From Spirochaetia bacterium (GTDB taxonomy: Bacteria; Spirochaetota; Spirochaetia; WTKD01; G963693115): a stretch of DNA of 64,000 bases. Each line of letters begins with the position of its first letter. Position 1 is the stretch's first letter. The notes under the pieces were generated by a model that was not told the origin of the DNA, searched no databases, and was given only the letters and a program-made list of their open reading frames with translations. Where the stretch lies: NCBI GenBank assembly GCA_965226055.1, contig CBDDCA010000005.1, positions 224,001-288,000 on the forward strand, written 5' to 3'. A program made the translations under genes and the position numbers. This document shows positions 17,151 to 59,731 of this stretch, in pieces.

Positions 17151-20100
17151 TTACGATGTACATGCTGGATCACCTCTAAAAATCTTTGGGAGCTGTGCTG
17201 TTTTCGTTTCCATAGCTGAGCCTGTAAACATACGACTTTGTAATCTTGATATACTACACAATTTCCATGATGATAAATCTTGATCAAATACAGAAGCATC
17301 TCTAAATATATTAATAATATTTACAACTTTACTTACATTCCAGCTTCCTATATTCTGATTAAATACACTTGCTTTATTAAACATACTAAACATACTAGTA
17401 ACTTTACTTACATTCCAGTTTCCTATGTTTTGATTAAATGCACTTGCTTCATCAAACATACTATCCATATGAGTAACTTTACTCACATTCCAGTTTCCTA
17501 TATTTTGATTAAAATCATCTGTTTCAATAAACATACCAGCCATACCAGTAACTTTTCCCGTATCCCAATTTCCTATGTTTTGATTAAAAACACTTGCTCC
17601 CCAAAACATACTGGACATATTCATTACATTACTGGTATTCCACTGTGTTATATCTCCATTAAAAGTACTATCCTTCCTAAATAATTCACTCATATCAGTA
17701 ATAGCACTGGTGTCTATCATGTTGAGGTTGGGGCTAGGGTTACTGTTTCCTCCTGAACCTTGCCTTGTTTTTTCTTCGCTGATAATAGTTTGCAGTGCTG
17801 ATTTTGTTGTTGGTCTGTAATAGGCTTCTGCTTTTCCTGATGGTGCTGTTCTTATATCTGTCCGTATAACAATAGTGGCGGGTACTTTTTTCTTTGAAGC
17901 GGTTATTGTACACTGTGCTACATCATAGCTATACTCAGTAATATTAGGGTCACGTATATTGGACTTATTTGCTATGCCTGTTATAGTAACTGTTTTGCTA
18001 CTCTGATTAAACGATACTGCTAGCCCTGTTTCATCTTTTATTTTCTTTGCATCTGCCTCTAGTATGGTGGCATCACAGGTAAAGGCATTGCCACTGGGTG
18101 TGCTGGTAAGTACTCTTGTAGTATTTGATGCTAGTGCTGTGCCTACTGTTGCTGAAACTATGCTAGTGTTTCCTATAGATATTGCACTTGCTTCAAACTC
18201 GTGGCGTTCTCCTGCTGATACTTTTGCAGGATCGGTGCTGTTTACTGCTTGCACTACTATTTCGTAGGTCGTTCCGTTTGTCAATCCTGTCAGGGTAGTG
18301 TTTGTTGTTCCTGCTGCTATGTTTTTTGTTGCTGTATTAGCATTTGCTTTTATCTGTGCTACGCTTCTCGTTGTATCACCACTCTTGGCAATGCTGTATA
18401 CTTTGTACGATACTTGTGCTGTTGTTAGGGTAGCTCCTTTATTTGTTTTGTGACTTGCACTGAGGCTGGGAGCTGTCCACGATACTCTCATACCTGTCTG
18501 GGCTACTCTTGTCTGTATAGTTGATACTTCTGCAGGGGCAGTCGCTTGCGATGCGGTTGTTACGCTTGCCACTGTCGATACTGCTTTTTTGCTAGTGTCT
18601 GTTTTTACTGCTACTTCTACCACAAAGTAATACTTTGTCGCTCCTTTTATTGCTACTACTGGTGCTGTGTCTGCAGACAAACCTAAACTGGCAAGGGCTG
18701 GTACTGTGTACACTCCGCTACTTACACTGCCTATATCTATCTTTCTGCCTGCAAGTACTTCTGCTACTGTAGGGTCAGTGTCTTTCTGTAAGCCATACAC
18801 TGTGTATGCTAGCTGATTACTAGCGGTTATGTTTGTGCCATCGTAGTCTTTCGCTCCTGTAAATGTGCTTAGCTCGGTAAGTACCAGCTTTATTGTGCCT
18901 GCTGTGTTTGTTGACGGTGATACTACTAGCTTTCCTGTGAGTAATGACTGATTTGGTGCTACTGCTTTGGAAGTATAGATTTCCTTTATTTCTGTTACAT
19001 CGGTGTAAAAGCCTGCAGGAAAGAGCTTGTCGCTATTTGTTGCATCGTAATTGGGGGATGTTGTGTTGACTATCCTCACTCCTATGTAGTAATCTTTTGC
19101 TGTTTCTATGGGGGTTGCTCCTGCATTGCTTCCACTGGTGCTGTCTACTATTGCTATGGATATGGTTGCTTGAGTTGTTCCTGTTGCTTTTGTGTACTTT
19201 GCTACCTTTACACTGCTTTTCTCTGTTGCCCATAAAGCCGATACACTGGCAGGCTTTCCTGTAGTATCTTCTTTCTTGAGGTATAGCACATAGTACGCAA
19301 GGTCTGTCGCTTCAAGGGCATTGCCATTTGCCTTACTCACTCCTGCTATTGCTGAGGCATTTACTTGTACTGTTATGACTTTTTTTCCTCTGTTGCTTCC
19401 TGTGCTAGGCACTGCAAATACTACTGCATTACTGTTAGTGTAGGTGGTGCTTTTTGGGGTATTTGGTGGTGCAGTAAGCGTTGCTTTCTTTATTGTTGCT
19501 GATGCTCCTATGCTATACGAAGGATTGAGGCTGTTTATTGCTTCTACTCCTGCGGTATAGTCTGCTCCTTTCGTTCCTATAAATCTTACTTGTAAGGTAC
19601 TGTCTCCTGCTATATTCTGTGTTTGTACTCCTGCAAGTCCTTTTATTGCCTCTAGTGTTTTTGTGCTGTGGTCTCCCTCTGCTATGTATACTTTGTACTG
19701 TATTTGTGCCTGTGTGAGTTTGCTTCCACTGGGTGCTTTGTTATCATTGGTAATGTCTCCTGCACTAAATGTATAGACTGCTGTTGCGGTTATTTGGGTT
19801 ACTGATTCTACAGAGAGCTTTGCATCTTTGGGAGCGGGCGGTGCTGTTGAGGTACTATCATATACTGCCACAGTATCAGCAAGAGTAGTTACAGGGCTTA
19901 CTATGTTATTTGCTATTGTCAAAAAGGTAAAGCGATAATTCTTGGCATTTGCTTGTACCTTAGGTACTTCTAAGCCATCTGCTATCCCAAAAGTAATGGC
20001 TGTTACACTTCCTGTTATGCTTTTTTCTGCTACCAGTGTAGCACCATCGTACATACGCAAAGTATAGTAGCTTCCTATGCCTGGAGCTTGCTTAAAGCTT

Positions 20101-21950
20101 GCTTTTATTTGTATTGCTCCTGTTGTGTCTAAGCTAGGCTTGTTTTGAAAAAGATCTTCTGACGGAGCTGTGGGTTGCGGAGTAGTTATGTCTTTTGTCG
20201 CTTGAGTGCTTTTGTTTTCTGAGTAATCAAGCGTGAGTATTGTTATGGTATATGTTTTTCCTTGTGTGAGTTCTTCTACAGAGAGTGCTGTTGTGGGATA
20301 GGCTACTTTTTTCTCATTTACTACTGTGGTGCTTGTGCCTTTTTCTGCTATGCTTATGCTGTATTCTTTTATGTCTTTGTTATTGGCTTTTGTTCCATCG
20401 GGTGCTGTCCATGTTATCTGTGTGCCTATCTTTGTAGGTGATACAAAAGGATAGCTTGCTTGTATGCTTGTCACTGCATCGGGGGCGGTGCCATCATCTA
20501 CTGTAGTGGTGGTTGCTGTTATTTTTGCTCCTTTGTTGCCTGTGTAGTCTTGTGACTGTACTGCTATGCTGTATTCAGTGGTAGCTTTTAGTCCTGTTAT
20601 CTGCGTGTTTCTTAGTGTTCTCTCTGTTATTGTTACTGTCTTTGCAGGGCTGTTCTTTTCTGTTACTGTTATAGTCACTCCTGCATAGTCTCTTACATCG
20701 GGGGCTTGCCAGCCTACTACTATGCTTGTTGCTCCTCCTACTGCACTCACATTGCTTACAGGCTCTGTGCTTTTGTCGGTTGTTGCTTGTTCTTTTGACA
20801 CTGCAGTGGAGTACTTTCCGTTTTGAGAGACATACACTTCTACTTTGTAGGTAAGCGTGCCATAGAGTTTTGTGAGGGCTATGCCATCTTTTGCTACATA
20901 CACAGTGGCGTACTCTTGATTGTCTGCACTTGCAGAGCTGAGTTTGGCTGTACTGCTATTGCTCACTGTTTCGTATGCTATGAGAGTATTTGTTGCTGTT
21001 GCTATCACTCGTACTTGCAGACTTTTTCCTGTACTAAAATCAAAGTTATTCCCCCACTTGATAAGCAGGCTTTCATCGGCTGGGCTATTGCTTTTATCGT
21101 TTGCTGTTACTGTAAGATCTGCCTCTGGCAGTGCGGCTACTGTCTGTGAGAGTGCTGAGGGTACTATGCCTCTGAGTGCTTGCTTTGCCGTGCTTTCGTT
21201 GCCATTGCTATCTCTGTATACTACTGTTACATCATAGCTTATGCCGTCTATAGTAGGAACAGCAATAGTTACTTCTCCTTGTGTTACATCTTGTACTGTT
21301 ACTTCTTTTTTTACATTAGTGGTGCTTTCTATCACCTGTACTATGGCTTCTGCTATGTCTGTTTTGCCTGACGAGAGCAGTGCTTTGTCCCATGTTATCT
21401 TTATACCATTTGTTGCTGATTCTACTGCTACCTTGTTGAAGGTATCTTGAGGTTTCGTTGTATCTGTCAATGTTGTCACAGAGCGGGTTGTTTTTGGTGA
21501 TACTTCTGTATCTGAGCCTGAGTTTGACTTCTGGGCTTCTATCTCTACAGTATAATCGGTAGTAGCGTGCAAGCCTCTGAGTACATAGGGTCTGTTTTGT
21601 TGAAACAATGTACGATATTCTATTGCAGGAACACGCACTTCTATTGATTGTGCTGGTGTCGTTGATGTAGCTTTTACAACTACATGCGTAGCATCGCTTG
21701 GAGCTTCCCAGCGTAACGAGAGCGTCCCATCGTTGCCTGCTGCTTGTATCTGCACATTGGACACTGATGCGAGTGTCGGGGTTACTGGCGTTCCCCCTCC
21801 GCCTGAGGAACTACTGCTACTCTCTGCACATCCTACGAGTACGAGGGTAGTTATTGCTAGCACTAACACAAGCGCAACTAGAGTTATGCTATACTTACTT
21901 TGTAGCTTACCATTTATCTGATAGTTTAGTTTTTCATTACTTTTTTTCAT
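17151..21950 (-). CDS. Large surface lipoprotein L1 (FN3/Ig stalk plus 6 DUF285 repeats and a Cys-containing cap)
   Basis: Lipobox LVGC then a poly-Ser/Gly linker, multiple FN3-like modules, C-terminal FNQNIGNWNVSKV repeats, AAGGAG RBS. Confidence 0.88.
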   Translation of the reverse strand: MKKSNEKLNYQINGKLQSKYSITLVALVLVLAITTLVLVGCAESSSSSSGGGGTPVTPTLASVSNVQIQAAGNDGTLSLRWEAPSDATHVVVKATSTTPAQSIEVRVPAIEYRTLFQQNRPYVLRGLHATTDYTVEIEAQKSNSGSDTEVSPKTTRSVTTLTDTTKPQDTFNKVAVESATNGIKITWDKALLSSGKTDIAEAIVQVIESTTNVKKEVTVQDVTQGEVTIAVPTIDGISYDVTVVYRDSNGNESTAKQALRGIVPSALSQTVAALPEADLTVTANDKSNSPADESLLIKWGNNFDFSTGKSLQVRVIATATNTLIAYETVSNSSTAKLSSASADNQEYATVYVAKDGIALTKLYGTLTYKVEVYVSQNGKYSTAVSKEQATTDKSTEPVSNVSAVGGATSIVVGWQAPDVRDYAGVTITVTEKNSPAKTVTITERTLRNTQITGLKATTEYSIAVQSQDYTGNKGAKITATTTTVDDGTAPDAVTSIQASYPFVSPTKIGTQITWTAPDGTKANNKDIKEYSISIAEKGTSTTVVNEKKVAYPTTALSVEELTQGKTYTITILTLDYSENKSTQATKDITTPQPTAPSEDLFQNKPSLDTTGAIQIKASFKQAPGIGSYYTLRMYDGATLVAEKSITGSVTAITFGIADGLEVPKVQANAKNYRFTFLTIANNIVSPVTTLADTVAVYDSTSTAPPAPKDAKLSVESVTQITATAVYTFSAGDITNDNKAPSGSKLTQAQIQYKVYIAEGDHSTKTLEAIKGLAGVQTQNIAGDSTLQVRFIGTKGADYTAGVEAINSLNPSYSIGASATIKKATLTAPPNTPKSTTYTNSNAVVFAVPSTGSNRGKKVITVQVNASAIAGVSKANGNALEATDLAYYVLYLKKEDTTGKPASVSALWATEKSSVKVAKYTKATGTTQATISIAIVDSTSGSNAGATPIETAKDYYIGVRIVNTTSPNYDATNSDKLFPAGFYTDVTEIKEIYTSKAVAPNQSLLTGKLVVSPSTNTAGTIKLVLTELSTFTGAKDYDGTNITASNQLAYTVYGLQKDTDPTVAEVLAGRKIDIGSVSSGVYTVPALASLGLSADTAPVVAIKGATKYYFVVEVAVKTDTSKKAVSTVASVTTASQATAPAEVSTIQTRVAQTGMRVSWTAPSLSASHKTNKGATLTTAQVSYKVYSIAKSGDTTRSVAQIKANANTATKNIAAGTTNTTLTGLTNGTTYEIVVQAVNSTDPAKVSAGERHEFEASAISIGNTSIVSATVGTALASNTTRVLTSTPSGNAFTCDATILEADAKKIKDETGLAVSFNQSSKTVTITGIANKSNIRDPNITEYSYDVAQCTITASKKKVPATIVIRTDIRTAPSGKAEAYYRPTTKSALQTIISEEKTRQGSGGNSNPSPNLNMIDTSAITDMSELFRKDSTFNGDITQWNTSNVMNMSSMFWGASVFNQNIGNWDTGKVTGMAGMFIETDDFNQNIGNWNVSKVTHMDSMFDEASAFNQNIGNWNVSKVTSMFSMFNKASVFNQNIGSWNVSKVVNIINIFRDASVFDQDLSSWKLCSISRLQSRMFTGSAMETKTAQLPKIFRGDPACTS

Positions 21951-22012
21951 AATGTTCTCCTTATAATTATCTATTTATTGTATAATTATATTATACATTA
22001 TACACAAATATC

Positions 22013-22134
22013 ATTATAGCAAAAATACTATTTTTTGTGTTATATCTGAAAATTAAAAAAAAAAAAAAAATACACTGGATTACACAAAAATGCATAGCAA
22101 AAAGTGATAATAATGCTACAATAGAGATGCTATG
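22013..22134. promoter_or_regulatory. L1 promoter cassette with an A16 tract (22055-22070)
   Basis: Minus-strand TATAAT at 22013-22018, conserved 21-mer AAATACTATTTTTTGTGTTAT, A16, inverted ACACAAAAA. Shared with the L2 and L3 upstream regions. Confidence 0.65.
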
Positions 22135-22158
22135 AACAAAATTTGATCCCTACTGAAG

Positions 22159-22192
22159 CCTTTGCTGTCGCAATTAGCCCTTGAATCTGCAC
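22159..22192. repeat. Dispersed junction element (reverse orientation)
   Basis: Reverse complement GTGCAGATTCAAGGGCTAATTGCGACAGCAAAGG resembles TTCAAGGATTAAATGCGACAAAGG at 53981-54004. Confidence 0.55.
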
Positions 22193-22228
22193 TATAGCAA
22201 GAAAGGAGTATTTCCTTTCTTGCTATAG
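22192..22228. terminator. Hairpin identical to 17093-17129, downstream of L2
   Basis: CTATAGCAAGAAAGGA-gtatt-TCCTTTCTTGCTATAG. Confidence 0.75.
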
Positions 22229-22247
22229 GTTGTATTGCTACACTATG

Positions 22248-25200
22248 CTATGATGTACATGCTGAACTACCAGCAACCTTTGGATACTGTGCTGTTTTGC
22301 CATCCATAGCTGAATTTTTGAAAATATTGAAAAGTCCTTGTACCCTACACAGTTTCCATGAGGATAAATTTTGATCAAATACAGAAGCATTACGAAACAT
22401 GGCACTAATATTAGTAACATTCCCTACATTCCAATTTCCTATATTTTGATTAAAGGCACTTGCTAAAAGAAACATGGTAGCCATAGTCTTTACACTACTC
22501 ACATCCCAATCTCCTATGTCTTGATTAAAAGCAGTAGCTTCATCAAACATTGAATTCATATTAGTAACCTTGCTTGTACCCCAATCTCCTATGTCTTGAT
22601 TAAAGACAACAGCTTTAAAAAACATAGCCCCCATATCCGTTACGTTACTGGTATTCCACTGTGTTATGTCTCCATTAAAAGTACTATCACTATCAAATAA
22701 ACTATTCATATCAGTAATAGCACTGGTGTCTATCATGTTGAGGTTGGGGCTAGGGTTACTATTCCCTCCTGAACCTTGCCTTGTTTTTTCTTCACTGATA
22801 ATAGTTTGAAGCTGTGCCTTTGTTGTTGGTCTGTAATAGGCTTCTGCTTTTCCTGATGGTGCTGTTCTTAGCTCTGTCTGTATAACAATAGTGGCTGGCA
22901 CTTTTTTCTTTGAAGCGGTAATTGTACATTGCACTACATCATAGCTATACTCAGTAATAGCTGTGTCTCGTATATTGGACTTATTTGCTATGCCTGTTAT
23001 GGTAACTGTTTTGCTATTCTGATTAAACGATACTGCTAGGCCTGTTTCTTTTTTGATTTTCTCTGCATCTACCTCTAGTATGTTTGCATCACAGGTAAAG
23101 GCATTGCCACTGGGTGTGCTTGCTAGTACTCTTGTAGTATTTGATGCTAGTGCTGTACCTACTGTTGCTAATACTATGCTAGTGTTTCCTATAGCTATTC
23201 CTCTTGCTTCAAACTCGTGGCGTTCTCCTGTCGATGCTTTTGTGTCATCGGTACTGTTTACTGCTTGCACCACTATTTCGTAGGTCGTTCCGTTCGTCAA
23301 GTTTGTCAGGGTAGTGTTTGTTGTTCCTGCTGCTACTGTTGTGGGGCTTGAATCTGCTTGTTTTATCGCTGCTACATTTCTTGCACTGCCACTCTTGGCT
23401 ACTTTGTATACTTTGTACGATACTTGTGCAGCTGTTAGGGTAGCTCCTTTATTTGTTTTGTGACTTGCACTGAGGCTGGGAGCTGTCCACGATACTCTCA
23501 TACCTGTCTGGGCTACTCTCGTCTGTATAGTTGATACTTCTGCGGGGGCAGTCGCCTGCGATGCTGTCGTTACACTTGCCACTGTCGATACTGCTTTTTT
23601 ACTTGTGTCTGTTTTTATTGCTACTTCTACCACAAAGTAGTACTTTGTCGCTCCCTTTATTGCTACTACTGGTGCTGTGTCTGATGACAAGCCTAAACTG
23701 GCAAGGGACTGTACTGTGTACACTCCGCTACTTGCACTGCCTAGGTTTATCTTTCTGCCTGCAAGTACTTCTGCTACGGTAGCAGTGCCGTCTTTCTGTA
23801 AGCCGTACACTGTGTATACTAGCTGATTACTTGCTGTTATGTTTGTGCCATCGTAGTCTTTTGCTCCTGTAAATGTGCTTAACTCGGTAAGTACCAGCTT
23901 TATTGTTCCTGTAGTATTTGTTGACTGTGATACTACCAGCTTTCCTGTGAGTAATGACTGGCTGGGTGCTACTGCTTTGGAAGTATAGATTTCCTTTATT
24001 TCTGTTACATCGGTGTAAAAGCCTGCAGGAAAGAGCTTGCTACTATTGGATGCATCGTAATTGGGGGATGTTGTGTTGACTATCCTTACCCCTATGTAGT
24101 AATCCTTTGCTGTTTCTATGGGCGTTACTCCTGCATTGCTTCCACTGGTGCTGTCTACTATTGCTATGGATATTGTGTCTTGAGTTGTTCCTGTTGCTTT
24201 TGTGTATTTTGCTACCTTTACACTGCTTTTCTCTATCGCCCACAGAGCTGATACGCTGGCAGGCTTTCCTGTGGTATCTTCTTTCTTGAGGTATAGCACA
24301 TAGTACGCAAGGTCTGTCGCTTCAAGGGCATTGCCATTTGCTTTGCTCACTCCTGCTATTGCTGAAGCATTGAGTTGTACTGTTATGACTTTTTTCCCTC
24401 TATTGCTTCCTGTTGTAGGCACTGCAAATACTACTGCATTACTGTTAGTGTAGGTGGTGCTTTTTGGGGTATTTGGTGGTGCAGTAAGCGTTGCTTTCTT
24501 TATTGTTGCTGATGTTCCTATGCTATACGATGGATTGAGGCTGTTTATTGCTTCTACTCCTGCGGTATAGTCTGCTCCTTTCGTTCCTATAAATCTTACT
24601 TGTAAGGTACTGTCTCCTGCTATATTCTGTGTTTGTACTCCTGCAAGGCCTTTTATTGCCTCTAGTGTTTTTGTGCTGTGGTCTCCTTCTGCTATGTATA
24701 CTTTGTACTGTATTTGTGCCTGTGTAAGTTTGCTTCCACTGGGTGCTTTGTTATCATTGGTAATGTCTCCTGCACTAAATGTATAGACTGCTGTTGCGGT
24801 TACTTGTGTTACTGACTCTACAGAGAGCTTTGCATCTTTTGCAGCGGGCGGTGCTGTCGAGGTACTATCGTATACTGCCACAGTATCGGAAAGAGTAGTT
24901 ACAGGGCTTACTATGTTATTTGCTATTGTCAAAAAGGTAAAGCGATAATTCTTGGCATTTGCTTGTACCTTAGGTACTTCCAAGCCATCTGCTATCCCAA
25001 AAGTAATGGCTGTTACACTTGCTGTTATGCTTTTTTCTGCTACCAGTGTAGCTCCATCGTACATACGCAGAGTGTAGTAGCTTCCTATGCCTGGAGCTTG
25101 CTTAAAGGTTGCTTTTATCTGTATTGCTCCTGTTGTGTCTAAGCTAGGCTTGTTTTGAAAAAGATCTTCTGACGGAGCTGTGGGTTGCGGAGTAGTTATG

Positions 25201-26945
25201 TCTTTTGTTGCTTGGCTACTTTTGTTTTCTGAGTAATCAAGCGTGAGTATTGTTATGGTGTATGTTTTGCCTTGTGTGAGTTCTTCTACAGAGAGTGCTG
25301 TCGTGGGATAGGGTATTTTCTTCTCGCTCAGTACTGTGGTGCTTGTGCCTTTTTCTGCTATGCTTACGCTGTATTCTTTTATGTCTTTGTTATTGGCTTT
25401 TGTTGTATCGGGGGCTGTCCATGTTATCTGTGTGCCTATCTTTGTAGGTGATACAAAGGGATAGCTTGCTTGTATGCTTGTTACTGCATCGGGGGCGGTG
25501 CCATCATCTACTGTGGTGGTGGTTGCTGTTATTTTTGCTCCTTTGTTGCCTGTGTAATCTTGTGACTGTACTGCTATGCTGTACTCAGTGGTAGCTTTTA
25601 GGCCTGTTATCTGTGTATTGCGTACTGTTCTCTCTGTTATTGTTACTGTCTTTGCTGTTGTTGTTGTGCTGTCTTTTTCCGTTACTGTTATAGTCACTCC
25701 TGCATAGTCTCTTACATCGGGGGCTTGCCAGCCTACTACTATGCTTGTTGCTCCTCCTACTGCACTCACATTGCTTACAGGCTCTGTGCTTTTGTCGGTT
25801 GTTGCTTGTTCTTTTGACACTGCAGTGGAGTACTTTCCGTTTTTAGAAACATACACTTCTACTTTGTAAGTAAGCGTACCATAGAGTTTTGTGAGGGCTA
25901 TGCCGTCCTTTGCTACATACACAGTGGCGTACTCTTGATTGTCTGCACTTGCAGAGCTGAGTTTGGCTGTACTGCTATTGCTCACTGTTTCGTATGCTAT
26001 GAGAGTATTTGTTGCTGTTGCTATCACTCGTACTTGCAGACTTTTTCCTGTACTAAAATCAAAGTTATTCCCCCACTTGATAAGCAGGCTTTCATCGGCT
26101 GGGCTATTGCTTTTATCGTTTGCTGTTACTGTAAGATCTGCCTCTGGCAGTGCGGCTACTGTCTGTGAGAGTGCTGAGGGTACTATGCCTCTGAGTGCTT
26201 GCTTTGCCGTGCTTTCGTTGCCATTGCTATCTCTGTATACTACTGTTACATCATAGCTTATGCCGTCTATAGTAGGAACAGCAATAGTTACTTCTCCTTG
26301 TGTTACATCTTGTACTGTTACTTCTTTTTTTACATTAGTGGTGCTTTCTATCACCTGTACTATGGCTTCTGCTATGTCTGTTTTGCCTGACGAGAGCAGT
26401 GCTTTGTCCCATGTTATCTTTATACCATTTGTTGCTGATTCTACTGCTACCTTGTTGAAGGTATCTTGAGGTTTCGTTGTATCTGTCAATGTTGTCACAG
26501 AGCGGGTTGTTTTTGGTGATACTTCCGTGTCTTTTTGTGCCTCTATCTCTACAGTATAATCGGTAGTGGCATGCAAGCCTCTGAGTACATAGGGTCTGTT
26601 TTGTTGAAACAATGTACGATATTCTATTGCAGGAACACGCACTTCTATTGATTGTGCTGGTGTCGTTGATGTAGCTTTTACAACTACATGCGTAGCATCG
26701 CTTGGAGCTTCCCAGCGTAACGAGAGCGTCCCATCGTTGCCTGCTGCTTGTATCTGCACATTGGACACTGATGCGAGTGTCGGGGTTACTGGTGTTCCTC
26801 CTCCGCCTGAGGAACTACTGCTACTCTCTGCACATCCTACGAGTACGAGGGTAGTCATTGCTAGCACTAAAAATAGTGCAACAACTATAAATATGTTCAG
26901 CTTACCATGTAGCTGATGGTTTAGTTTTTCATTACTTTTTTTCAT
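22248..26945 (-). CDS. Large surface lipoprotein L2 (paralogue of L1, 5 DUF285 repeats)
   Basis: Long stretches identical to L1, lipobox LVGC, divergent C-terminal repeats. Confidence 0.88.
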   Translation of the reverse strand: MKKSNEKLNHQLHGKLNIFIVVALFLVLAMTTLVLVGCAESSSSSSGGGGTPVTPTLASVSNVQIQAAGNDGTLSLRWEAPSDATHVVVKATSTTPAQSIEVRVPAIEYRTLFQQNRPYVLRGLHATTDYTVEIEAQKDTEVSPKTTRSVTTLTDTTKPQDTFNKVAVESATNGIKITWDKALLSSGKTDIAEAIVQVIESTTNVKKEVTVQDVTQGEVTIAVPTIDGISYDVTVVYRDSNGNESTAKQALRGIVPSALSQTVAALPEADLTVTANDKSNSPADESLLIKWGNNFDFSTGKSLQVRVIATATNTLIAYETVSNSSTAKLSSASADNQEYATVYVAKDGIALTKLYGTLTYKVEVYVSKNGKYSTAVSKEQATTDKSTEPVSNVSAVGGATSIVVGWQAPDVRDYAGVTITVTEKDSTTTTAKTVTITERTVRNTQITGLKATTEYSIAVQSQDYTGNKGAKITATTTTVDDGTAPDAVTSIQASYPFVSPTKIGTQITWTAPDTTKANNKDIKEYSVSIAEKGTSTTVLSEKKIPYPTTALSVEELTQGKTYTITILTLDYSENKSSQATKDITTPQPTAPSEDLFQNKPSLDTTGAIQIKATFKQAPGIGSYYTLRMYDGATLVAEKSITASVTAITFGIADGLEVPKVQANAKNYRFTFLTIANNIVSPVTTLSDTVAVYDSTSTAPPAAKDAKLSVESVTQVTATAVYTFSAGDITNDNKAPSGSKLTQAQIQYKVYIAEGDHSTKTLEAIKGLAGVQTQNIAGDSTLQVRFIGTKGADYTAGVEAINSLNPSYSIGTSATIKKATLTAPPNTPKSTTYTNSNAVVFAVPTTGSNRGKKVITVQLNASAIAGVSKANGNALEATDLAYYVLYLKKEDTTGKPASVSALWAIEKSSVKVAKYTKATGTTQDTISIAIVDSTSGSNAGVTPIETAKDYYIGVRIVNTTSPNYDASNSSKLFPAGFYTDVTEIKEIYTSKAVAPSQSLLTGKLVVSQSTNTTGTIKLVLTELSTFTGAKDYDGTNITASNQLVYTVYGLQKDGTATVAEVLAGRKINLGSASSGVYTVQSLASLGLSSDTAPVVAIKGATKYYFVVEVAIKTDTSKKAVSTVASVTTASQATAPAEVSTIQTRVAQTGMRVSWTAPSLSASHKTNKGATLTAAQVSYKVYKVAKSGSARNVAAIKQADSSPTTVAAGTTNTTLTNLTNGTTYEIVVQAVNSTDDTKASTGERHEFEARGIAIGNTSIVLATVGTALASNTTRVLASTPSGNAFTCDANILEVDAEKIKKETGLAVSFNQNSKTVTITGIANKSNIRDTAITEYSYDVVQCTITASKKKVPATIVIQTELRTAPSGKAEAYYRPTTKAQLQTIISEEKTRQGSGGNSNPSPNLNMIDTSAITDMNSLFDSDSTFNGDITQWNTSNVTDMGAMFFKAVVFNQDIGDWGTSKVTNMNSMFDEATAFNQDIGDWDVSSVKTMATMFLLASAFNQNIGNWNVGNVTNISAMFRNASVFDQNLSSWKLCRVQGLFNIFKNSAMDGKTAQYPKVAGSSACTS

Positions 26946-27007
26946 AATGTTCTCCTTATAATTATCTATTTATTGTATAATTATATTATACATAATACAC
27001 AAGTCTT

Positions 27008-27125
27008 ATTATATCAAAAATACTATTTTTTGTGTTATATCTTAAAAAAAAAAAAAAAAAATACACTGGATTACACAAAAATACATAGCAAAAAGTGATA
27101 ATAATGCTACAATAGAGATGCTATG
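27008..27125. promoter_or_regulatory. L2 promoter cassette with an A18 tract (27044-27061)
   Basis: Same architecture as the L1 upstream region. Confidence 0.65.
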
Positions 27126-27148
27126 AACAAAAAGGAAAGCACACAAAC

Positions 27149-27208
27149 TGCACGAATTCAAGGAACAAAAAAGAGCAAGGAAAATAAAAATTAGTCCTTG
27201 AATCCGCA
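27149..27208. repeat. Dispersed junction element with two inverted TTCAAGGA/TCCTTGAA ends
   Basis: TGCACGAATTCAAGGA...AAAAAAGAGCAAG...ATTAGTCCTTGAATCCGCA. Confidence 0.55.
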
Positions 27209-27281
27209 AAGATTATTTCTTTAAAACAACTTTTTTTAATTTGTTATATAATAAACATAACTAATTTATTAAGGAGGGTAT

Positions 27282-28634: not shown

Positions 28635-28640
28635 CAGTAT

Positions 28641-29510: not shown

Positions 29511-29513
29511 TAT

Positions 29514-30341: not shown

Positions 30342-30391
30342 ATAATAGAAAGTATATACATATAAATTATACTAAAAAATAAGGAGGTAGT

Positions 30392-31159: not shown

Positions 31160-31205
31160 ATAACATACGAGAGTATGTATACATATCAAAAAAAGGAGTG
31201 TAATA

Positions 31206-33238: not shown

Positions 33239-33240
33239 AT

Positions 33241-45764: not shown

Positions 45765-45792
45765 ACAGCAACGGTGCATACAAAATAAGATA

Positions 45793-47214: not shown

Positions 47215-47236
47215 ATGTTATATCTTAATAAAAACA

Positions 47237-48970: not shown

Positions 48971-49047
48971 GATATTTATATATTTTTCCTCTTACTATAG
49001 TATAGTATACTATAGTATAATATACTATATAGTCTATATATACATAT

Positions 49048-49857: not shown

Positions 49858-49882
49858 TATATATGTATATCATATACCAATA

Positions 49883-50854: not shown

Positions 50855-50922
50855 TACACTACTGTAAGGAGACCTACTATGCTCCTCACACTCACTAGGT
50901 AATATACATATAACTATTTCTC

Positions 50923-52455: not shown

Positions 52456-52627
52456 ATATTTCTTCCTTTACTTATTTTAATACTTAATAATTTATTATAC
52501 CATTTTATAAGTATTATTGCAAACAGAAATACAAAGATTTTTGCAGATTTAAGGAGTAAAGTGTTTAACAAAGTTTTGGTTGTTCAATACAGTATATATA
52601 GTAATAGTACAAGTAAGGAGAGAAAAA

Positions 52628-52953
52628 ATGCATAATTATCCAACAAACATAGAGAGATTAGTGATAATAGTAGCACCTTATACTCTTTAATATATGGCTT
52701 TATTAGTGGTGTTTGTAGAAAAAAAATTTCTGATATTAAAGCTCACCATATTTCTAGTATTATATCTTTTTTGTTATCCATTTATTTATTTTCTAAAGTA
52801 TTATCATACTTCTTCACTTTTTTAGATGGGTTAGTATTTCTAATTGGAAATTTCATGTTAGTATCCAAGCAGAAGTATGTGCTACAATATCACTTACACA
52901 CAATAGGCGAAAAAGATTTAAAAAATCCTAAAAAAATTAGATTCTGGAAATAA
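52628..52953 (+). pseudogene. Frameshifted small membrane-protein gene
   Basis: AAGGAG RBS plus ATG 52628 stops after 20 codons, but the adjacent frame is open from 52636 to 52953 (LSNKHRE...IRFWK). Restoring one base near codon 3 joins them. Confidence 0.45.
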
Positions 52954-52970
52954 TTTGATATAATATATAT

Positions 52971-53612
52971 ATGGGAGCAGAAAAATATAAAGAATTTGAA
53001 GAAATTTGGGATAACTTAAATAAGGCAGAGTTAGCATCTGATAAGATAGAATTTGCCTGGAAGAGTACAATAGAATCTAATAATAATATAGAAACAAAAT
53101 TAGATAGGAATAATTCAAAGGCTACAGTGCTATTAACAATTTCTATAGCATTACTAGGACTCATATTACCTATACTAATAGGCATAATATTTGAAAGCGA
53201 AAAAATAATACCTATATTAAACAGTATCCTTATCAATATAGATTGGTTGAAGCCACAAGTAGCGTTAGGAATATTTGAATTATTTCTATCATTTTCCTCT
53301 ACCTGTTTCTTCTTTTCTAGTATGTTCTTTATGAGGTTATTAACAGAGAGTGTTATGAATAAAGATATTTTGAGACTATCTCCTGCAGTTTTTTTTAGCA
53401 ATATCCCGTATGATGACAGCATAAAAACAAAAATAAGATTAATACCAACATTGGAAATGATAGCATATAAAAAGTATCAAACCTTGTTAAGTAATCGTAT
53501 AAAATTTCTAATGGGATCATCAATATTACAGATAGGATTTATATTTTTTGCCATATTGCTGATAATAGTAGGATATATTATATCTAGTTATTATCTATAT
53601 CTAGATCTATAA
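52971..53612 (+). CDS. Membrane protein resembling the Pycsar effector family (DUF5706/PycTM)
   Basis: NNSKATVLL-TM1, TM2, AVFFSNI, IAYKKYQTL-TM3 follow the family pattern. Confidence 0.55.
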   Translation: MGAEKYKEFEEIWDNLNKAELASDKIEFAWKSTIESNNNIETKLDRNNSKATVLLTISIALLGLILPILIGIIFESEKIIPILNSILINIDWLKPQVALGIFELFLSFSSTCFFFSSMFFMRLLTESVMNKDILRLSPAVFFSNIPYDDSIKTKIRLIPTLEMIAYKKYQTLLSNRIKFLMGSSILQIGFIFFAILLIIVGYIISSYYLYLDL

Positions 53613-53963
53613 TATATTTTTGTATGAATTACTATTAGGTTCTATTTTTTCTATTGGTGGCCATAGTATAATTAGTATAAGTAGTATTGTAGATACTATT
53701 ATAGATACTATAGATACTATTGGAGATGCTGCTATAATGATGATTGCAGAGGCTACTATAGATAATGCTATAGATAGTATTATACGCATAAAAAATTTCT
53801 TCTTTGAAAATATATATTCATCTTGCATATCTAGGTAGTCAATAATATCATAAGAGGTGTCATGAGGAACATTTTTTGTTTGTAATGTTGTTTTTGTATT
53901 TTGCTCTCTCCTCTTTTCCATATTCTTATAATAACATATTTTATATTTTTTTTCTTTAGTCAA
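53607..53963 (-). CDS. Small hypothetical membrane protein
   Basis: Two Ile/Ser-rich TM segments. Start uncertain (TTG 53963 or ATG 53921). Confidence 0.45.
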   Translation of the reverse strand: MTKEKKYKICYYKNMEKRREQNTKTTLQTKNVPHDTSYDIIDYLDMQDEYIFSKKKFFMRIILSIALSIVASAIIIIAASPIVSIVSIIVSTILLILIILWPPIEKIEPNSNSYKNIL

Positions 53964-53965
53964 TC

Positions 53966-54027
53966 CACGAGTTCAAGGAGTTCAAGGATTAAATGCGACA
54001 AAGGAGCAAAAAAAGAGCAAGAAATAA
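53966..54027. repeat. Dispersed junction element
   Basis: CACGAGTTCAAGGAGTTCAAGGATTAAATGCGACAAAGGAGCAAAAAAAGAGCAAGAAATAAA, with an internal 9-bp tandem duplication. Confidence 0.55.
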
Positions 54028-54037
54028 ACATATAAAC

Positions 54038-54661
54038 TTACTTTATTGGTATACTTTCTATAGGAACAACCCTTTCATTAATTGGCACACCTCTCACTCG
54101 TTTCACCAAATACTCTTTAAGTCCATCAAAAAAGGTAGTATCAAAAATAGGCATTGTATCGGATGTATTTTTTGCCCTACCTTTATATTGTATAGAATCT
54201 CCTGTTACTTTTACATCCACCCTAATAGTATCACTTGCTTTCTCTGGATAATACATAAGTATTTCATACACATAAGCAGCACGCCTCTCTAAAAACTCAG
54301 GAACAAATGGATAATCAATATAATCTTTTGCTTTATACTCCCCTACTACAAAAAAAGTACGCATTGTTTTTAATACATTTCCTGTACTTTCAAACTCTGC
54401 TTTTATGAAAGAATCATTAATAGCTGAATTGGTAAGATACTCATGTATATATTGATATACTACCTCACTAGATACCCCTTCAATCTCAATATGGTTATAT
54501 ACAGTAGATTCTGTAAGCAATGGGCTAATATCCTTGTATACTTCTCGAAATATCAAAAATACAATAACTAGAGCAAATATAGAAAAAATAGGAAAAGCTA
54601 TCAAAAAGTAAACTATATGTACCATTTTTTCAAAAATTGGTGTTTTGCTTTTACTTTCCAT
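54038..54661 (-). CDS. Membrane-anchored hypothetical protein (possibly DUF4468-like)
   Basis: AAGGAG RBS, N-terminal TM, IEIEGVSSEVVYQYIHEYL pattern. Confidence 0.6.
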   Translation of the reverse strand: MESKSKTPIFEKMVHIVYFLIAFPIFSIFALVIVFLIFREVYKDISPLLTESTVYNHIEIEGVSSEVVYQYIHEYLTNSAINDSFIKAEFESTGNVLKTMRTFFVVGEYKAKDYIDYPFVPEFLERRAAYVYEILMYYPEKASDTIRVDVKVTGDSIQYKGRAKNTSDTMPIFDTTFFDGLKEYLVKRVRGVPINERVVPIESIPIK

Positions 54662-54845
54662 AAAAATACTCCTTTTATTATTATCGGAAATTCAAATTAC
54701 TAACCAAATAGTACTGAAAAAATAAAAAAACCCATACATATATCCTAATAATAAGAAACACAAAAAAGGAGATTGTATGAGCTATATTCATATATCATAG
54801 CATGAACGCAAAGAAATAGCACACATACTTAAGTGCAAAAGCTAG

Positions 54846-54889
54846 CTCAAGCATTACATGTGACAAAGGAGAAAATAAAGAGCAAGAAA
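54846..54889. repeat. Dispersed junction element fused to the L3 terminator
   Basis: CTCAAGCATTACATGTGACAAAGGAGAAAATAAAGAGCAAGAAA aligns to 53981-54024. Confidence 0.55.
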
Positions 54890-54908
54890 GGAAAAGCTCC
54901 TTTCTTGC
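54882..54908. terminator. Hairpin downstream of L3, related to the L1/L2 hairpins
   Basis: GCAAGAAAGGA-aaagc-TCCTTTCTTGC. Confidence 0.7.
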
Positions 54909-54934
54909 CATAAGCTGTTTCTATAGGCACGCTA

Positions 54935-57900
54935 CTATGAGGGACATGAACCACCAACCCTTGGGTATTTGTGGCCATCTCCTTGCATAGCTGAACCTGT
55001 AAACATAGTACTACTGAGCTTACCTGAACGAAGGCTACATAAATTCCATGATGATAAATCTTGATCAAACTTCAAAGCATCCTCAAATACAGATTGAGCA
55101 ATAGAAACACTCGTCACGTTCCATTTTCCTATATCTTGATTAAAAGCACTTGCTCCACTAAACATAGAAGTCATATAAGTAAGATTGCTCACATCCCATT
55201 CTTTTATGTCTTGATTAAAAGCTTTTGCGTGAAAAAACATAAAGCCCATTTCAGTAACCGCACTCACATTCCAATCTCCTATGTCTTGATTAAAAGCATT
55301 TGTTAAAACAAACACATTAGACATATCAGTTACTTTGCCAACATCCCAATCTCCTATGTCTTGATTAAAAACACTTGCTTTCCTAAACATACTATCCATA
55401 CTCTCTACATTACTCATATTCCACCGTGTTATGTCTCCATTAAAAGTACTATCACTATCAAATAAACTTTCCATATCAGTAATAGCACTGGTATCTATCA
55501 TGTTGAGGTTGGGGCTAGGGTTGTTGTTTCCTCCTGAACCTTGCCTTGTCTTTTCTTCGCTGATAATAGTTTGTAGTGCTTTCTTTGTTGTTGGTCTGTA
55601 ATAGGCTTCTGCTTTTCCTGATGGTGCTGTTCTTATATCTGTCCGTATAACGATAGTGGCGGGTACTTTTTTCTTTGATGCAGTAAGGGTACACTGTGCT
55701 ACATCATAGCTATACTCAGTAATAGCTGTGTCTCGTATATTGGACTTATTTGCTATGCCTGTTATGGTAACTGTTTTGCTACTCTGATCAAATGATACTG
55801 CTAGCCCTGTCTCTTTTTTGATTTTCTCTGCATCTGCCTCTAGTATGTTTGCATCACAGGTAAAGGCAGAGTTACTAGTAAGTACTCTTGTAGTATTTGA
55901 TGCGAGTGCTGTGCCTACTGTTGCTGATACTATGCTAGTGTTTCCTATAGATATTCCTCTTGCTTCAAACTCGTGGCGTTCTCCTACTGATGCTTTTGTG
56001 TCATCGGTGCTGTTTACTGCTTGCACTACTATTTCGTAGGTCGTTCCGTTTGTCAAGTTTGTCAGGGTAGTGTTGGTTGTTCCTGCTGCTATGTTTTTTG
56101 TTGCTGTATTAGCATTTGCTTTTATCTGTGCTACACTTCGCGTTGTATCACCACTCTTGGCAATGCTGTATACTTTGTACGATACTTGTGCTGTTGTTAG
56201 GGTAGCTCCTTTGTTTGTTTTGTGGCTTGCACTGAGGCTAGGGGCTGTCCACGATACTCTCATGCCTGTTTGGGCTACTCTTGTTTGTATGCTTGATACT
56301 TCTGCGGGGGCTGTCGCTTGCGATGCGGTCGTTACGCTTGCCACTGACGATGCTACTTTCTTGCTTGTATCTGTTTTTACTGCTACTTCTACCACAAAGT
56401 AGTATTTTGTCGCTCCTTTTATTGCTACTACTGGTGCTGTGTCTGATGACAAGCCTAAACTGGCAAGGGCTGGTACTGTGTACACTCCGCTACTTGCACT
56501 GCCTAGGTTTACTTTTCTGCCTGCAAGTACTTCTGCTACTGTTGGAGTTGTAGCTTTCTGTAAGCCATATACTGTGTATACTAGCTGATTGCTTGCTGTT
56601 ATGTTTGTGCCATCGTAGTCTTTTGCTCCTGTAAATGTGCTTAGCTCGGTAAGTACCAGCTTTATTGTTCCTGCTGTGTTTGTTGACGGTGATACTACCA
56701 GCTTTCCTGTGAGTAATGACTGGCTGGGTGCTACTGCTCTGGAAGTATAGATTTCCTTTATTTCTGTTACATCGGTGTAAAAGCCTGCAGGAAAGAGCTT
56801 GTCGCTATTGGATGCATCGTAATTGGGTGATGTCGTGTTTACTATCCTTACTCCTATGTAGTAGTCTTTTGCTGTTTCTATGGGCGTTGCTCCTGCATTG
56901 CTTCCACTGGTACTGTCTACTATTGCTATGGATATTGTGTCTTGAGTTGTTCCTGTTGCTTTTGTGTATTTTGCTACTCTTGTACTGGTTTTCTCTGTTG
57001 CCCATAGTGCTGATACACTGGCAGGCTTTCCAGTGGTATCTTCTTTCTTGAGGTATAGCACATAGTAGGCAAGATCTGTCGCTTCAAGGGCATTGCCGTT
57101 TGCCTTGCTCACTCCTGCTATAGCTGAGGCATTTACTTGCACTGTTATTACTTTTTTCCCGCTGTTACTTCCTGTTGTAGGCACTGCAAATACTACTGCA
57201 TTACTGTTAGTGTAGGTCGTTACTTTTGGTGTGCTTGGGGGAGCAGTAAGGGTTGCTTTCTTTATTGTTGCTGATGTTCCTATGCTATACGATGGATTGA
57301 GGCTGTTTATTGCTTCTACTCCTGCGGTATAGTCTGCTCCTTTCGTTCCTATAAATCTTACTTGTAAGGTACTGTCTCCTGCTATATTCTGTGTTTGTAC
57401 TCCTGCAAGTCCTTTTATTGCCTCTAGTGTTTTTGTGCTGTGGTCTCCTTCTGCTATGTATACTTTGTACTGTATTTGTGCCTGTGTGAGTTTGCTTCCA
57501 CTGGGTGCTTTGTTAGTATCAGTAATGTCTCCTGCACTAAATGTATAGACTGCTGTTGCGGTTGTTTGGGTTACTGACTCTACAGAGAGCTTTGCATCTT
57601 TGGGAGCAGGCGGTGCTGTTGAGGTACTATCATATACTGCCACAGTATCAGCAAGAGTAGTTACAGGGCTTACTATGTTATTTGCTATTGTCAAAAAGGT
57701 AAAGCGATAATTCTTGGCATTTGCTTGTACCTTAGGTACTTCCAAGCCATCTGCTATCCCAAAAGTAATGACTGTTACACTTGCTGTTATGCTTTTTTCT
57801 GCTACCAGTGTAGCTCCATCGTACATACGCAAAGTGTAGTAGCTTCCTATGCCTGGAGCTTGCTTAAAGGTTGCTTTTATTTGTATTGCTCCCGTTGTGT

Positions 57901-59731
57901 CTAAGCTAGGCTTGCTTTGAAAGAGATCCTCTGAGGGAGCTGTGAGTGAGTTGGGGGTTGTTATGTCTTTTGTTGCTTGGCTACTTTTGTTTTCTGAGTA
58001 ATCAAGCGTGAGTATTGTTATAGTATATGTTTTGCCTTGCACAAGTTCTTCGACAGAGAGTGATGTTGTGGGATAGGGTATTTTCTTCTCGCTCAGTACT
58101 GTGGTGCTTGTGCCTTTTTCTGCTATGCTTATGCTGTATTCTTTTATGTCTTTGTTATTGGCTTTTGTTGTATCGGGTGCTGTCCATGTTATCTGTGTGC
58201 CTATCTTTGCTGCTGATACAAAGGGATAGCTTGCTTGTATGTTTGTTACTGCATCGGGGGCGGTGCTATCTGCTTCTGTGCTGACTGTGACTGTTGCTTC
58301 TGTTCCTTTGTTGCCTGCACTGTCCATTGATACGACTGCCACTGTATACTCGGTGGTTGCTTTGAGATCTGTTATCTGCGTGTTGCGTACTGTTCTCTCT
58401 GTTATTGTCACTGTCTTTGCCACGGTACTGCTGTCCTTTTCTGTTGCTGTTATAGTCACTCCTGCATAGTCTCGTACATCGGGGGCTTGCCAGCCTACTA
58501 CTATGCTTGTTGCTCCTCCTATGGCACTTACATTACTTACAGGTTCTGTGCTTTTGTCTGTTGTTGCTTGTTCTTTTGATACTGCAGTGGAGTACTTTCC
58601 GTTTTGAGAAACATATACTTCTACTTTGTACGTAAGCGTGCCATAGAGTTTTGTGAGTGCTATGCCATCTTTTGCTACATACACAGTTGCATATTCTTGG
58701 TTGTCTGCACTTGCTCCGCTGACATTGGTTGCACTTGTATCTTTATCTATTGTCTCTTCTGCTACTACTGTGTTTGTTGCGGTTGCTATCACTCGTACTT
58801 GGAGGCTTTTTTCTGTACTTCCTGTTCCAAAGTCAAAACTCCCCCACTTGATAAGCAGGCTTTCATCGGCTGGACTATTGCTTTTATCGTTTGCTGTTAC
58901 TGTAAGGTCTGATGCGGAAAGTGGCGTTACTGTTTGCGAGAGTGCTGATGGCACTATGCCTCTGAGTGCTTGCTTCGCTGTACTTTTGTTACCGTTGCTA
59001 TCTTTGTACACTACCACTATATCATAGCTAATGCCGTCTATAGTGGGGACAGCAATGCTTACCTCTCCTTGTGTTACATCTTGTACGGATACTTCTATCT
59101 TTACATTAGTAGTTCTTTCTATCACCTGTATTGTGGCTTCGGCTATGTCTGTCTTGCCTGACGAGAGCAGTGCTTTGTCCCATGTTATCTTTATGCCATT
59201 TGTTGCTGATTCTACTGCTACCTGTGTAAAGGTGTCCTGCGGTGCAGTTTCATCGCTAAGTGTTGTCACAGAACGGGTTGTTTTTGGTGATACTTCTGTG
59301 TCTGAGCCTGAGTCTGATTTTTGGGCTTCTATCTCTACAGTATAATCGGTAGTAGCGTGCAAGCCTCTGAGGGTGTAGGGTCTGTTTTGTTGAAACAATG
59401 CACGATATTCTATTGCAGGAACACGCACCTGTATTGATTGGGCTGGTGTTGTTGATGTAGCTTTTACGACTACATGCGTGGCTTCGCTGGGAGCTTGCCA
59501 GCGTAACGAGAGTGTCCCATCATTGCCTGCTGCTTGTATCCGCACATTGGACACTGATGCGAGTGTCGGGGTTACTGAATTTCCCCCTCCGCCTGAAGAA
59601 CTGCTGCTACTCTCTGCACATCCTACGAGTACGAGGGTAGTTATTGCTAGCACTAAAAATAGTACTACAACTATAAATATGTTCAGCTTACCATTTAGCT
59701 GATAGTTTAGTTTTTTCATTACTTTTTTCAT
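54935..59731 (-). CDS. Large surface lipoprotein L3 (paralogue of L1/L2, 6 DUF285 repeats)
   Basis: Lipobox LVGC, stalk highly similar to L1/L2, divergent repeat tip. Confidence 0.88.
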   Translation of the reverse strand: MKKVMKKLNYQLNGKLNIFIVVVLFLVLAITTLVLVGCAESSSSSSGGGGNSVTPTLASVSNVRIQAAGNDGTLSLRWQAPSEATHVVVKATSTTPAQSIQVRVPAIEYRALFQQNRPYTLRGLHATTDYTVEIEAQKSDSGSDTEVSPKTTRSVTTLSDETAPQDTFTQVAVESATNGIKITWDKALLSSGKTDIAEATIQVIERTTNVKIEVSVQDVTQGEVSIAVPTIDGISYDIVVVYKDSNGNKSTAKQALRGIVPSALSQTVTPLSASDLTVTANDKSNSPADESLLIKWGSFDFGTGSTEKSLQVRVIATATNTVVAEETIDKDTSATNVSGASADNQEYATVYVAKDGIALTKLYGTLTYKVEVYVSQNGKYSTAVSKEQATTDKSTEPVSNVSAIGGATSIVVGWQAPDVRDYAGVTITATEKDSSTVAKTVTITERTVRNTQITDLKATTEYTVAVVSMDSAGNKGTEATVTVSTEADSTAPDAVTNIQASYPFVSAAKIGTQITWTAPDTTKANNKDIKEYSISIAEKGTSTTVLSEKKIPYPTTSLSVEELVQGKTYTITILTLDYSENKSSQATKDITTPNSLTAPSEDLFQSKPSLDTTGAIQIKATFKQAPGIGSYYTLRMYDGATLVAEKSITASVTVITFGIADGLEVPKVQANAKNYRFTFLTIANNIVSPVTTLADTVAVYDSTSTAPPAPKDAKLSVESVTQTTATAVYTFSAGDITDTNKAPSGSKLTQAQIQYKVYIAEGDHSTKTLEAIKGLAGVQTQNIAGDSTLQVRFIGTKGADYTAGVEAINSLNPSYSIGTSATIKKATLTAPPSTPKVTTYTNSNAVVFAVPTTGSNSGKKVITVQVNASAIAGVSKANGNALEATDLAYYVLYLKKEDTTGKPASVSALWATEKTSTRVAKYTKATGTTQDTISIAIVDSTSGSNAGATPIETAKDYYIGVRIVNTTSPNYDASNSDKLFPAGFYTDVTEIKEIYTSRAVAPSQSLLTGKLVVSPSTNTAGTIKLVLTELSTFTGAKDYDGTNITASNQLVYTVYGLQKATTPTVAEVLAGRKVNLGSASSGVYTVPALASLGLSSDTAPVVAIKGATKYYFVVEVAVKTDTSKKVASSVASVTTASQATAPAEVSSIQTRVAQTGMRVSWTAPSLSASHKTNKGATLTTAQVSYKVYSIAKSGDTTRSVAQIKANANTATKNIAAGTTNTTLTNLTNGTTYEIVVQAVNSTDDTKASVGERHEFEARGISIGNTSIVSATVGTALASNTTRVLTSNSAFTCDANILEADAEKIKKETGLAVSFDQSSKTVTITGIANKSNIRDTAITEYSYDVAQCTLTASKKKVPATIVIRTDIRTAPSGKAEAYYRPTTKKALQTIISEEKTRQGSGGNNNPSPNLNMIDTSAITDMESLFDSDSTFNGDITRWNMSNVESMDSMFRKASVFNQDIGDWDVGKVTDMSNVFVLTNAFNQDIGDWNVSAVTEMGFMFFHAKAFNQDIKEWDVSNLTYMTSMFSGASAFNQDIGKWNVTSVSIAQSVFEDALKFDQDLSSWNLCSLRSGKLSSTMFTGSAMQGDGHKYPRVGGSCPS

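Follow-up and report, generated by a model that had tools for sequence, protein, structure and literature searches.

A modular family of giant lipoproteins with a common FN3 stalk and divergent PARCEL (DUF285) tips in a host-associated spirochaete

Introduction

Contingency lipoproteins built from PARCEL (DUF285) repeats are described in Mollicutes, where, according to the main text of Roske et al. 2010 (PMC2996958), they carry a tandem repeat of 25 residues in which hydrophobic positions are conserved and hydrophilic ones vary, are targeted as lipoproteins, are shuffled within the genome and are accompanied by 5′ homopolymer tracts. Here we analyse three genes, L1, L2 and L3, with these same features, located in a window of 64,000 nucleotides (the whole stretch of DNA examined) from Spirochaetia bacterium (assembly GCA_965226055.1, contig CBDDCA010000005.1, here C5:224001–288000). 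As in contingency families of the Mollicutes type, which have a long simple-sequence tract at the promoter or 5′ coding end, tracts of T16, T18 and T17 are found at L1–L3, and the likeness to Mycoplasma variable lipoproteins drawn in an initial annotation of this DNA thus holds. The differences are that the host is a spirochaete, that the repeats form a short terminal cassette on an FN3 stalk of ~1350 aa that is uniform across 35 genes, and that our model of the repeats is a leucine-rich repeat (LRR)-like solenoid, whereas the main text of Roske et al. predicted amphipathic helices. That main text, additional files aside, contains 0 mentions of spirochetes or Treponema, and a full-text literature search for DUF285 together with spirochaetes found nothing related; a broader one gave, among the papers listed, work on T. 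pallidum only. Within the literature searched, and again leaving the additional files of Roske et al. aside, no spirochaete has been published that combines two homopolymer devices with a terminal PARCEL cassette on a uniform FN3 stalk.

Two spirochaete systems resemble the control region of these genes. In Treponema pallidum, tpr genes are switched by promoter poly-G, and a variable homopolymer near the promoters of tpr genes and tp0126 changes transcription there, as described in the relevant parts of Haynes et al. 2021 (PMC7864442); the poly-G, however, lies inside the promoter and in tp0126 sets the -35/-10 spacing, whereas the poly-T here lies upstream of the -35 position. The Tpr porins are moreover unrelated to FN3-PARCEL lipoproteins. 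In Borrelia, T-rich regions or poly-T tracks boost expression from the ospAB, vmp and vlp promoters (Sohaskey 1999, as cited in passages of PMC5565969 and PMC2525819). These also are long T tracts upstream of a core promoter in a spirochaete, but in those passages the tract is an enhancer rather than a switch and serves a single expression site, whereas here tracts of 14–27 nt occur in 19 of 37 paralogues.

Our analysis revealed that L1–L3 belong to a modular family in which gene conversion keeps the stalks of the genome uniform (concerted evolution), while tips are unique, old lineages that evolve fast at fixed repeat positions and have moved between stalks and loci. We consider it probable, at roughly 0.6, that stalks are kept alike by recombination, that tips are exchangeable and that expression of each gene is independently switched by homopolymer tracts. 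The PARCEL contingency-lipoprotein theme would thereby extend from Mollicutes to spirochaetes.

Results and discussion

Plan of L1–L3 and size of the family

The three genes and their tip cassettes are located as follows, and all three open reading frames (ORFs) translate stop-free.

17151..21950, minus strand: L1, 1599-aa lipoprotein (from ORF calls, translation, Pfam and repeat count)
22248..26945, minus strand: L2, 1565-aa lipoprotein on the plan of L1, with a 5-repeat tip, in tandem with L1
54935..59731, minus strand: L3, 1598-aa lipoprotein on the plan of L1, with a 6-repeat tip
17154..17729, minus strand: L1 tip cassette, from the junction NLNMIDTSAITDM (17691–17729) to the final codon
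22251..22745, minus strand: L2 tip cassette (junction 22707–22745)
54938..55510, minus strand: L3 tip cassette (junction 55472–55510)

L1 consists, in order, of a signal peptide with the lipobox LVGC (Cys41), a Ser/Gly tether, the FN3 stalk, a six-repeat PARCEL tip and a two-Cys cap; the signal peptide ending in LVGC and the following tether are common to the three proteins. Pfam recognised fn3 in four stretches per protein and a C-terminal DUF285 (PF03382) in L1, L2 and L3 (E 8e-60, 1.8e-55 and 1.9e-55; 200.3, 186.2 and 186.2 bits against a gathering cut-off of 25). Assignment to NCBIfam NF045896 (Mbov_0838 family PARCEL lipoprotein) was rejected, since the cut-off is 500 bits and the scores reached 135.7 and 130.

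The initial annotation had described a conserved stalk that breaks into a divergent tip, and sliding windows of 50 aa bear this out: identity was 82–100% over most of columns 1–1450, with local dips to 62–68% at columns 301, 451 and 1201, and 30–66% from column 1451, so that divergence is not uniform along the genes. The break falls at NLNMIDTSAITDM in all three, the stated repeat counts of 6, 5 and 6 are right, with one repeat every 25 aa, and the quoted motifs (MSSMFWG, MAGMFIE, MGAMFFK, MATMFLL and MGFMFFH) can be read in the translations. The proposed cap, W[K/N]LC ... C[T/P]S, is also present, with both Cys invariant in 41 aligned tips, and each gene indeed has its own copy of the same upstream promoter cassette and of the same downstream hairpin.

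The system had been taken to comprise three genes, but it is a family of 35. A search of the genome (2.25 Mb, 6 contigs, 89% complete) with L1 returned 300 matches, and in the ORF catalogue 66 ORFs matched the stalk and 75 the tip. Full-length paralogues on the same plan number 35 (1513–1708 aa), fall into two stalk subfamilies, with L1–L3 in the larger, and total 164,820 nt. Thus an uncultured, host-associated spirochaete devotes 7.3% of its genome to 35 versions of a giant lipoprotein, the main difference between them being a tip of ~150–190 residues, a share among the larger surface-variation investments for a genome of such size. The junction motif is near-invariant and occurs 45 times in the genome: 35 times in the complete genes, five times in giant ORFs (2550–2834 aa) and otherwise in truncated or contig-edge copies.

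Distribution in other genomes

Among 185,579 species, each represented by one genome, close relatives were found in a single other genome, a Spirochaetia bacterium metagenome-assembled genome (MAG) with a single-contig chromosome (hereafter the sister genome), which holds 26 family loci; one more weak match (31%) came from a Firmicutes MAG. Of 41 relatives searched, the full stalk was present in two (this genome and its genus-mate), and tip-only matches were present in nine. A search of 5.8 billion proteins gave 82 hits at E ≤1e-10, all but four attributed to these two genomes. The four remaining proteins (P0076, P0079, P0080 and P0081, on two other contigs) have stalks 42–47% identical to that of L1 and carry Kelch, LRR_5 or no tip domain, not DUF285, which suggests that the FN3 stalk may serve as a general display scaffold.

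These loci bear on the reading that the copies are assembly artefacts, or that the tips were diversified by a diversity-generating retroelement. Nothing was found in favour of either. Six public runs, none of them RNA, cover part of the window, all as contigs shattered across the stalk, and short-read contigs do collapse there. Flanks and tip are unique to every copy, and the independent single-contig chromosome carries its own 26 loci. Contigs of 317–324 nt in runs X2 and X3 match the L1 tip with 0 differences, although the source sample may be their origin. As to a retroelement, a search for reverse transcriptase (PF00078, RVT_1) gave no match in the 89%-complete genome, whereas the control search matched 3 of 14 genomes. 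We rejected this reading as extremely improbable.

Evolution of stalk and tip

Comparison of synonymous (dS) and nonsynonymous (dN) divergence among L1–L3 revealed a stalk with dS 0.15–0.28 and dN/dS 0.20–0.21, and a tip with dS 0.49–0.57 and dN/dS 0.53–0.71; at silent sites, too, the tips are thus the older part. An identical stretch of 480 nt is common to L1 and L2, and the pattern of identity is mosaic, both of which point to gene conversion. Diversification of the tips is real but does not alone account for the contrast between the two parts, because gene conversion of the stalk contributes part and synonymous divergence is 2–3 times higher in the tip.

The same contrast was seen across the family. 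For all 35 stalks, the nearest relative lay within the same genome (median 93%, vs 83% for the sister genome). For the tips, of which 29 were sampled in the sister genome, the nearest relative was in the same genome in 15 of 35 cases and in the sister genome in 20, with median best matches of 64% and 67%, respectively. Each tip is unique, and the closest pair within the genome is no nearer than 88%. Housekeeping genes of the two genomes share 96–99% aa identity (dS 0.10–0.24, dN/dS 0.05–0.13), and the best cross-genome tip pairs, with dS 0.08–0.31 and dN 0.09–0.23, look like orthologous tips whose protein sequence changes about 10 times faster than that of housekeeping genes. dN/dS was 0.17–0.42 in the stalk and, over 14 pairs, 0.52–2.85 in the whole tip; values well below 1, which would have spoken against diversified tips, were not seen there. 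A common stalk with diversified tips is thus supported, and the clean borders of the modules make the family a test case for gene conversion that renders one part of a gene uniform but leaves another part alone.

Movement of tips between stalks and loci

Two cases indicate that tips have moved. The first is C5_353337, which has a stalk of the small subfamily, and the sister-genome locus L014, which has one of the large subfamily: their tips are 90–95% identical at the nucleotide level, and their stalks ~55%. Along the pair, identity was ~45–70% over the end of the stalk, rose to 88–96% within the tip stretch and fell again after it; the high-identity stretch of ~650–700 nt begins ~100 nt ahead of the junction and ends with the stop codon, and dS was 0.077 in the tip and 0.474 in the stalk. 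Tips thus appear to have moved as cassettes of ~0.65–0.7 kb between unlike stalks, and the interchangeability that had been proposed for them is borne out on an evolutionary scale. The second case is L3, whose upstream flank is syntenic with sister locus L016 (88% over 1166 nt) and whose downstream flank is syntenic with L019 (93% over 946 nt). L019 aligns well with L3 over the end of the stalk and over the 3′ flank, but not over the tip; the closest tip is that of sister locus L038 (79% aa), which is located elsewhere and not at the syntenic locus. We conclude from these alignments that the tip at the L3 locus has probably been replaced. The sister promoter syntenic with that of L3 has T6 plus G15; therefore the 5′ module appears to have been exchanged too. 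The sister genome lacks L1 and L2 at the syntenic site, where a 327-aa stalkless ORF consisting only of DUF285 lies between nagB and the SBP gene (L041, ~3420–5020). Apparent joints within the tip in public contigs, considered as a further sign of exchange, are most likely paralogous tips aligned at 90% likeness and were given no weight. A single weak hint came from run X6, in which the nagAB flank showed 23 differences and 3 gaps over 2174 nt and a 272-nt contig on the L1 tip showed 12 differences; that contig is perhaps a paralogue's.

Exchange might also be programmed and frequent within a population, as in vlsE, TprK, pilE/pilS or VLR systems, with the junction block and the 3′ hairpin serving as anchors for gene conversion that swaps tips among the genes. 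The hairpins are located as follows.

17093..17129, minus strand: L1 downstream hairpin, 16–17 bp stem, read directly; palindromic BLAST matches
22192..22228, minus strand: L2 downstream hairpin, 17 pairs
54881..54909, minus strand: L3 downstream hairpin, with a T-rich tail

A strict terminator scan that required a T tail raised no flag at L1, whose hairpin is without one. Several features agree with such a programme. The tip forms a separate, sharply bordered module; the 30 nt of the junction are the best conserved of the region, third codon positions included (mean pairwise nucleotide identity 0.90–0.94); the hairpin seen at L1 is kept across the family and in both genomes; and the tip at the syntenic L3 locus differs between genomes whose housekeeping dS is only 0.10–0.24. 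Moreover, three 5′-truncated copies retain the junction and an intact tip (C5:342478–344118, C5:344230–345393 and C3:159738–160268), two of them in tandem just upstream of a full-length member; these could be decaying remnants or donor cassettes. Against this stand 35 complete genes with their own promoters, with only 3–5 truncated copies and no single expression site, and the distance between tips: no pair within the genome exceeds 88% and best matches have a median of 64%, so recent copying of tips from gene to gene has left no trace. The genome-wide search for copies and silent cassettes that had been suggested gave many more copies, but the census of the 45 junction motifs found no single expression site with an array of silent donor cassettes. 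We regard programmed cassette exchange as distinctly unlikely. Equally doubtful is its extension to a display of three modules, in which switch, stalk and tip would reassort in real time, with tips passing among the 35 expressed genes through gene conversion aimed at the junction block and the 3′ hairpin; if it were true, a clone would change not only which genes are active but also which tip is paired with which switch, and bacteria would have, in this family, an equivalent of cassette-assembled LRR receptors that needs no silent library.

Lamprey VLRs, to which the tips had been likened, are LRR solenoids with a kept scaffold, variable positions on or near the face of the beta-sheet and Cys-containing caps, built when silent cassettes are joined in a single locus by somatic assembly. 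The present family, in contrast, has 35 germline genes, no cassette library and no sign of somatic assembly, and this part of the comparison is not supported.

Fold and variable positions of the tip

Residues 1385–1599 of L1 were modelled with AlphaFold2 (AF2) from an alignment of 41 tips (pLDDT 91.2, pTM 0.86). The model begins with an N-terminal helix, and each of its six repeats forms a beta-bridge at position 3. An exhaustive structural aligner gave TpLRR of T. pallidum (6mlx_A) as the top match (Z 13.0, root-mean-square deviation 3.6 Å, 181 aligned residues), although for repeat proteins a Z near 13 may reflect shared arrangement only; BspA-type LRR proteins (4h09, Z 11.7; 4fs7, Z 11.0) and then Leptospira LRR proteins followed. 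Although 6mlx, 4h09 and 4fs7 are the best structural matches, their sequence identity to the tip is 9–11%. Foldseek against the Protein Data Bank (PDB) with the tip model gave no hit at E ≤0.001, only weak LRR rows with VLR chains among them, and a sequence profile of the 41 tips gave no hit against the PDB at E ≤0.01. The tip is thus predicted to be an LRR-like solenoid, at the level of fold only.

Analysis of 161 family repeats revealed a spacing of 25 aa in nearly all of them and a fixed pattern of variation, as had been claimed for residues around a kept scaffold: entropy was at least 3 bits at positions 3, 5, 6, 9 and 10, F8, F14 and W21 were invariant, and N15, Q16, D17 and I18 nearly so. 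The 25-residue repeats show the conserved hydrophobic and variable hydrophilic positions that PARCEL/DUF285 requires. From the repeat geometry and the DSSP string of the model, positions 3–10 would form one contiguous third of the circumference of the solenoid, the beta-ladder included.

Since a first class of variable positions was chosen from the family's own variability and is partly circular, a second, independent class was drawn from 28 non-family DUF285 ORFs with 537 repeats, in which the top positions were 10, 6, 9, 5 and 20. Pooled over 12 pairs without shared genes, dN/dS was 1.44 in this independent class (S 183, N 786, sd 36.2, nd 209.8) and 0.67 in the rest of the tip; of the 12 pairs with a defined value for the class, 10 lay above 1. 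In a rough binomial comparison, 210 of 246 changes were nonsynonymous, against 81% expected (one-sided p ~0.05). Diversifying selection at the variable tip positions is likely but not proven. The distal place on the stalk and fast change at defined positions are strong circumstantial evidence that the DUF285 repeats are ligand-binding modules, and the family could be a natural scaffold for LRR-type binders, a possible tool.

In a dyad-symmetry scan, the DNA of the L1 tip contained three weak inverted repeats (15–19 nt, 72–80% complementary); a direct periodicity of 75 nt is clear.

Promoters and homopolymer tracts

The poly-T tracts of L1–L3 lie between near-identical flanks in the promoter cassette.

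22055..22070, minus strand: L1 poly-T tract, T16; TATAAT box at 22013–22018
27044..27061, minus strand: L2 poly-T tract, T18; TATAAT box at 27008–27013
59827..59843, minus strand: L3 poly-T tract, T17; TATAAT box at 59786–59791

Between the end of each tract and the TATAAT box, before which L1 and L2 have a TG, there are 36 nt, which places the tract upstream of the -35 position. At the L1 tract (22043–22081), public contigs break off. A second promoter-like site of L1 lies between the first TATAAT box and the start codon (21985–22014, minus strand: ATGATA, 18 nt, TATAAT; 10 of 12 matches).

Categorizing the 37 family 5′ ends revealed two devices: T14–T27 between near-identical flanks in 19, G9–G16 between the start codon and the signal peptide in 14, and neither in 4. 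At the 26 sister loci, poly-G was found in 22, T13–15 in 9 and both in 5; the poly-T lengths are narrow there (13–15 vs 14–27 here). In L1–L3 the tract does not lie where its length must change expression, whereas in the poly-G members it does.

This distribution also bears on the reading of a static repertoire, that is, 35 constitutive adhesins or surface-coat proteins of differing specificity, in which poly-T is an UP-like enhancer of strong lipoprotein promoters, as in Borrelia, and its length has no regulatory effect. Counted from the start region that TATAAT defines, the tracts span about -49 to -64 and are in the place of an UP element, and L1, L2 and L3 are all intact and in frame. According to passages of PMC5565969 and PMC2525819, T-rich regions are needed for full ospA expression and a poly-T track is present in the vlp promoter of relapsing-fever Borrelia. 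But lengths of 14–27 between paralogues with a near-identical flanking cassette indicate high mutability, the poly-G of 14 of the 37 members is in the coding leader, where its length must set the reading frame, and the sister genome has both devices together at 5 of 26 loci. We consider a static repertoire rather unlikely.

A probable modular display model

In the preferred reading, a family of independently switched genes with common stalks and exchangeable tips, each member has three modules. The 5′ control module is, in L1–L3, the promoter cassette, in which a hypermutable poly-T precedes the core promoter, and, in other members, the poly-G tract between start codon and signal peptide. The stalk module (about 1350–1400 aa of FN3/Ig-like domains) would be lipid-anchored via Cys41, and the tip cassette of ~0.65–0.7 kb would encode a short helix, 3–6 PARCEL (DUF285) repeats folded as an LRR-like solenoid and the two-Cys cap. 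The tip would be the ligand-binding end, kept away from the cell by the stalk. Homopolymer tracts would vary the expression of each gene independently, so that a clonal population might display changing subsets of 35 binding specificities, which could serve adhesion, escape from antibodies or phages, or both.

Several points weigh against this model. The grouping of variable positions on one face is drawn from repeat geometry and DSSP only. The excess of dN/dS above 1 at the variable positions is marginal, and near-complete relaxation of constraint fits as well. The exchange of tips is deduced from two genomes and could equally be described as replacement of the stalk. By its position, the length of the poly-T tract cannot alter the spacing of the -35 and -10 hexamers, and an on/off effect is not implied; T-rich tracts at the equivalent place in Borrelia are promoter enhancers in the passages seen in PMC5565969 and PMC2525819.

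Neighbouring genes and minor observations

The span 17151–59731 also holds ~28 kb of unrelated ordinary genes between L2 and L3, including sugar ABC transporter genes, and a complete bacterial 16S rRNA gene (1554 bits) is located just upstream of the L3 promoter region (60950–62498, minus strand). Three further surface-protein ORFs lie in a row on the minus strand (6102–8714, 8930–12289 and 12442–14745), without the family stalk and junction: two of them (870 and 1119 aa) have one FN3, He_PIG and 6–8 DUF285 stretches, and the third (767 aa) is FN3-only.

Comparison of the first codons of L3 (59705–59731) with those of L1 (21924–21950) and L2 (26919–26945) revealed two compensating 1-nt changes in A runs. 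L3 has A6+A6 where L1 and L2 have A7+A5, and the protein accordingly starts with MKKVMKKLN instead of MKKSNEKLN, a type of start found also in one other family member (C6:155053).

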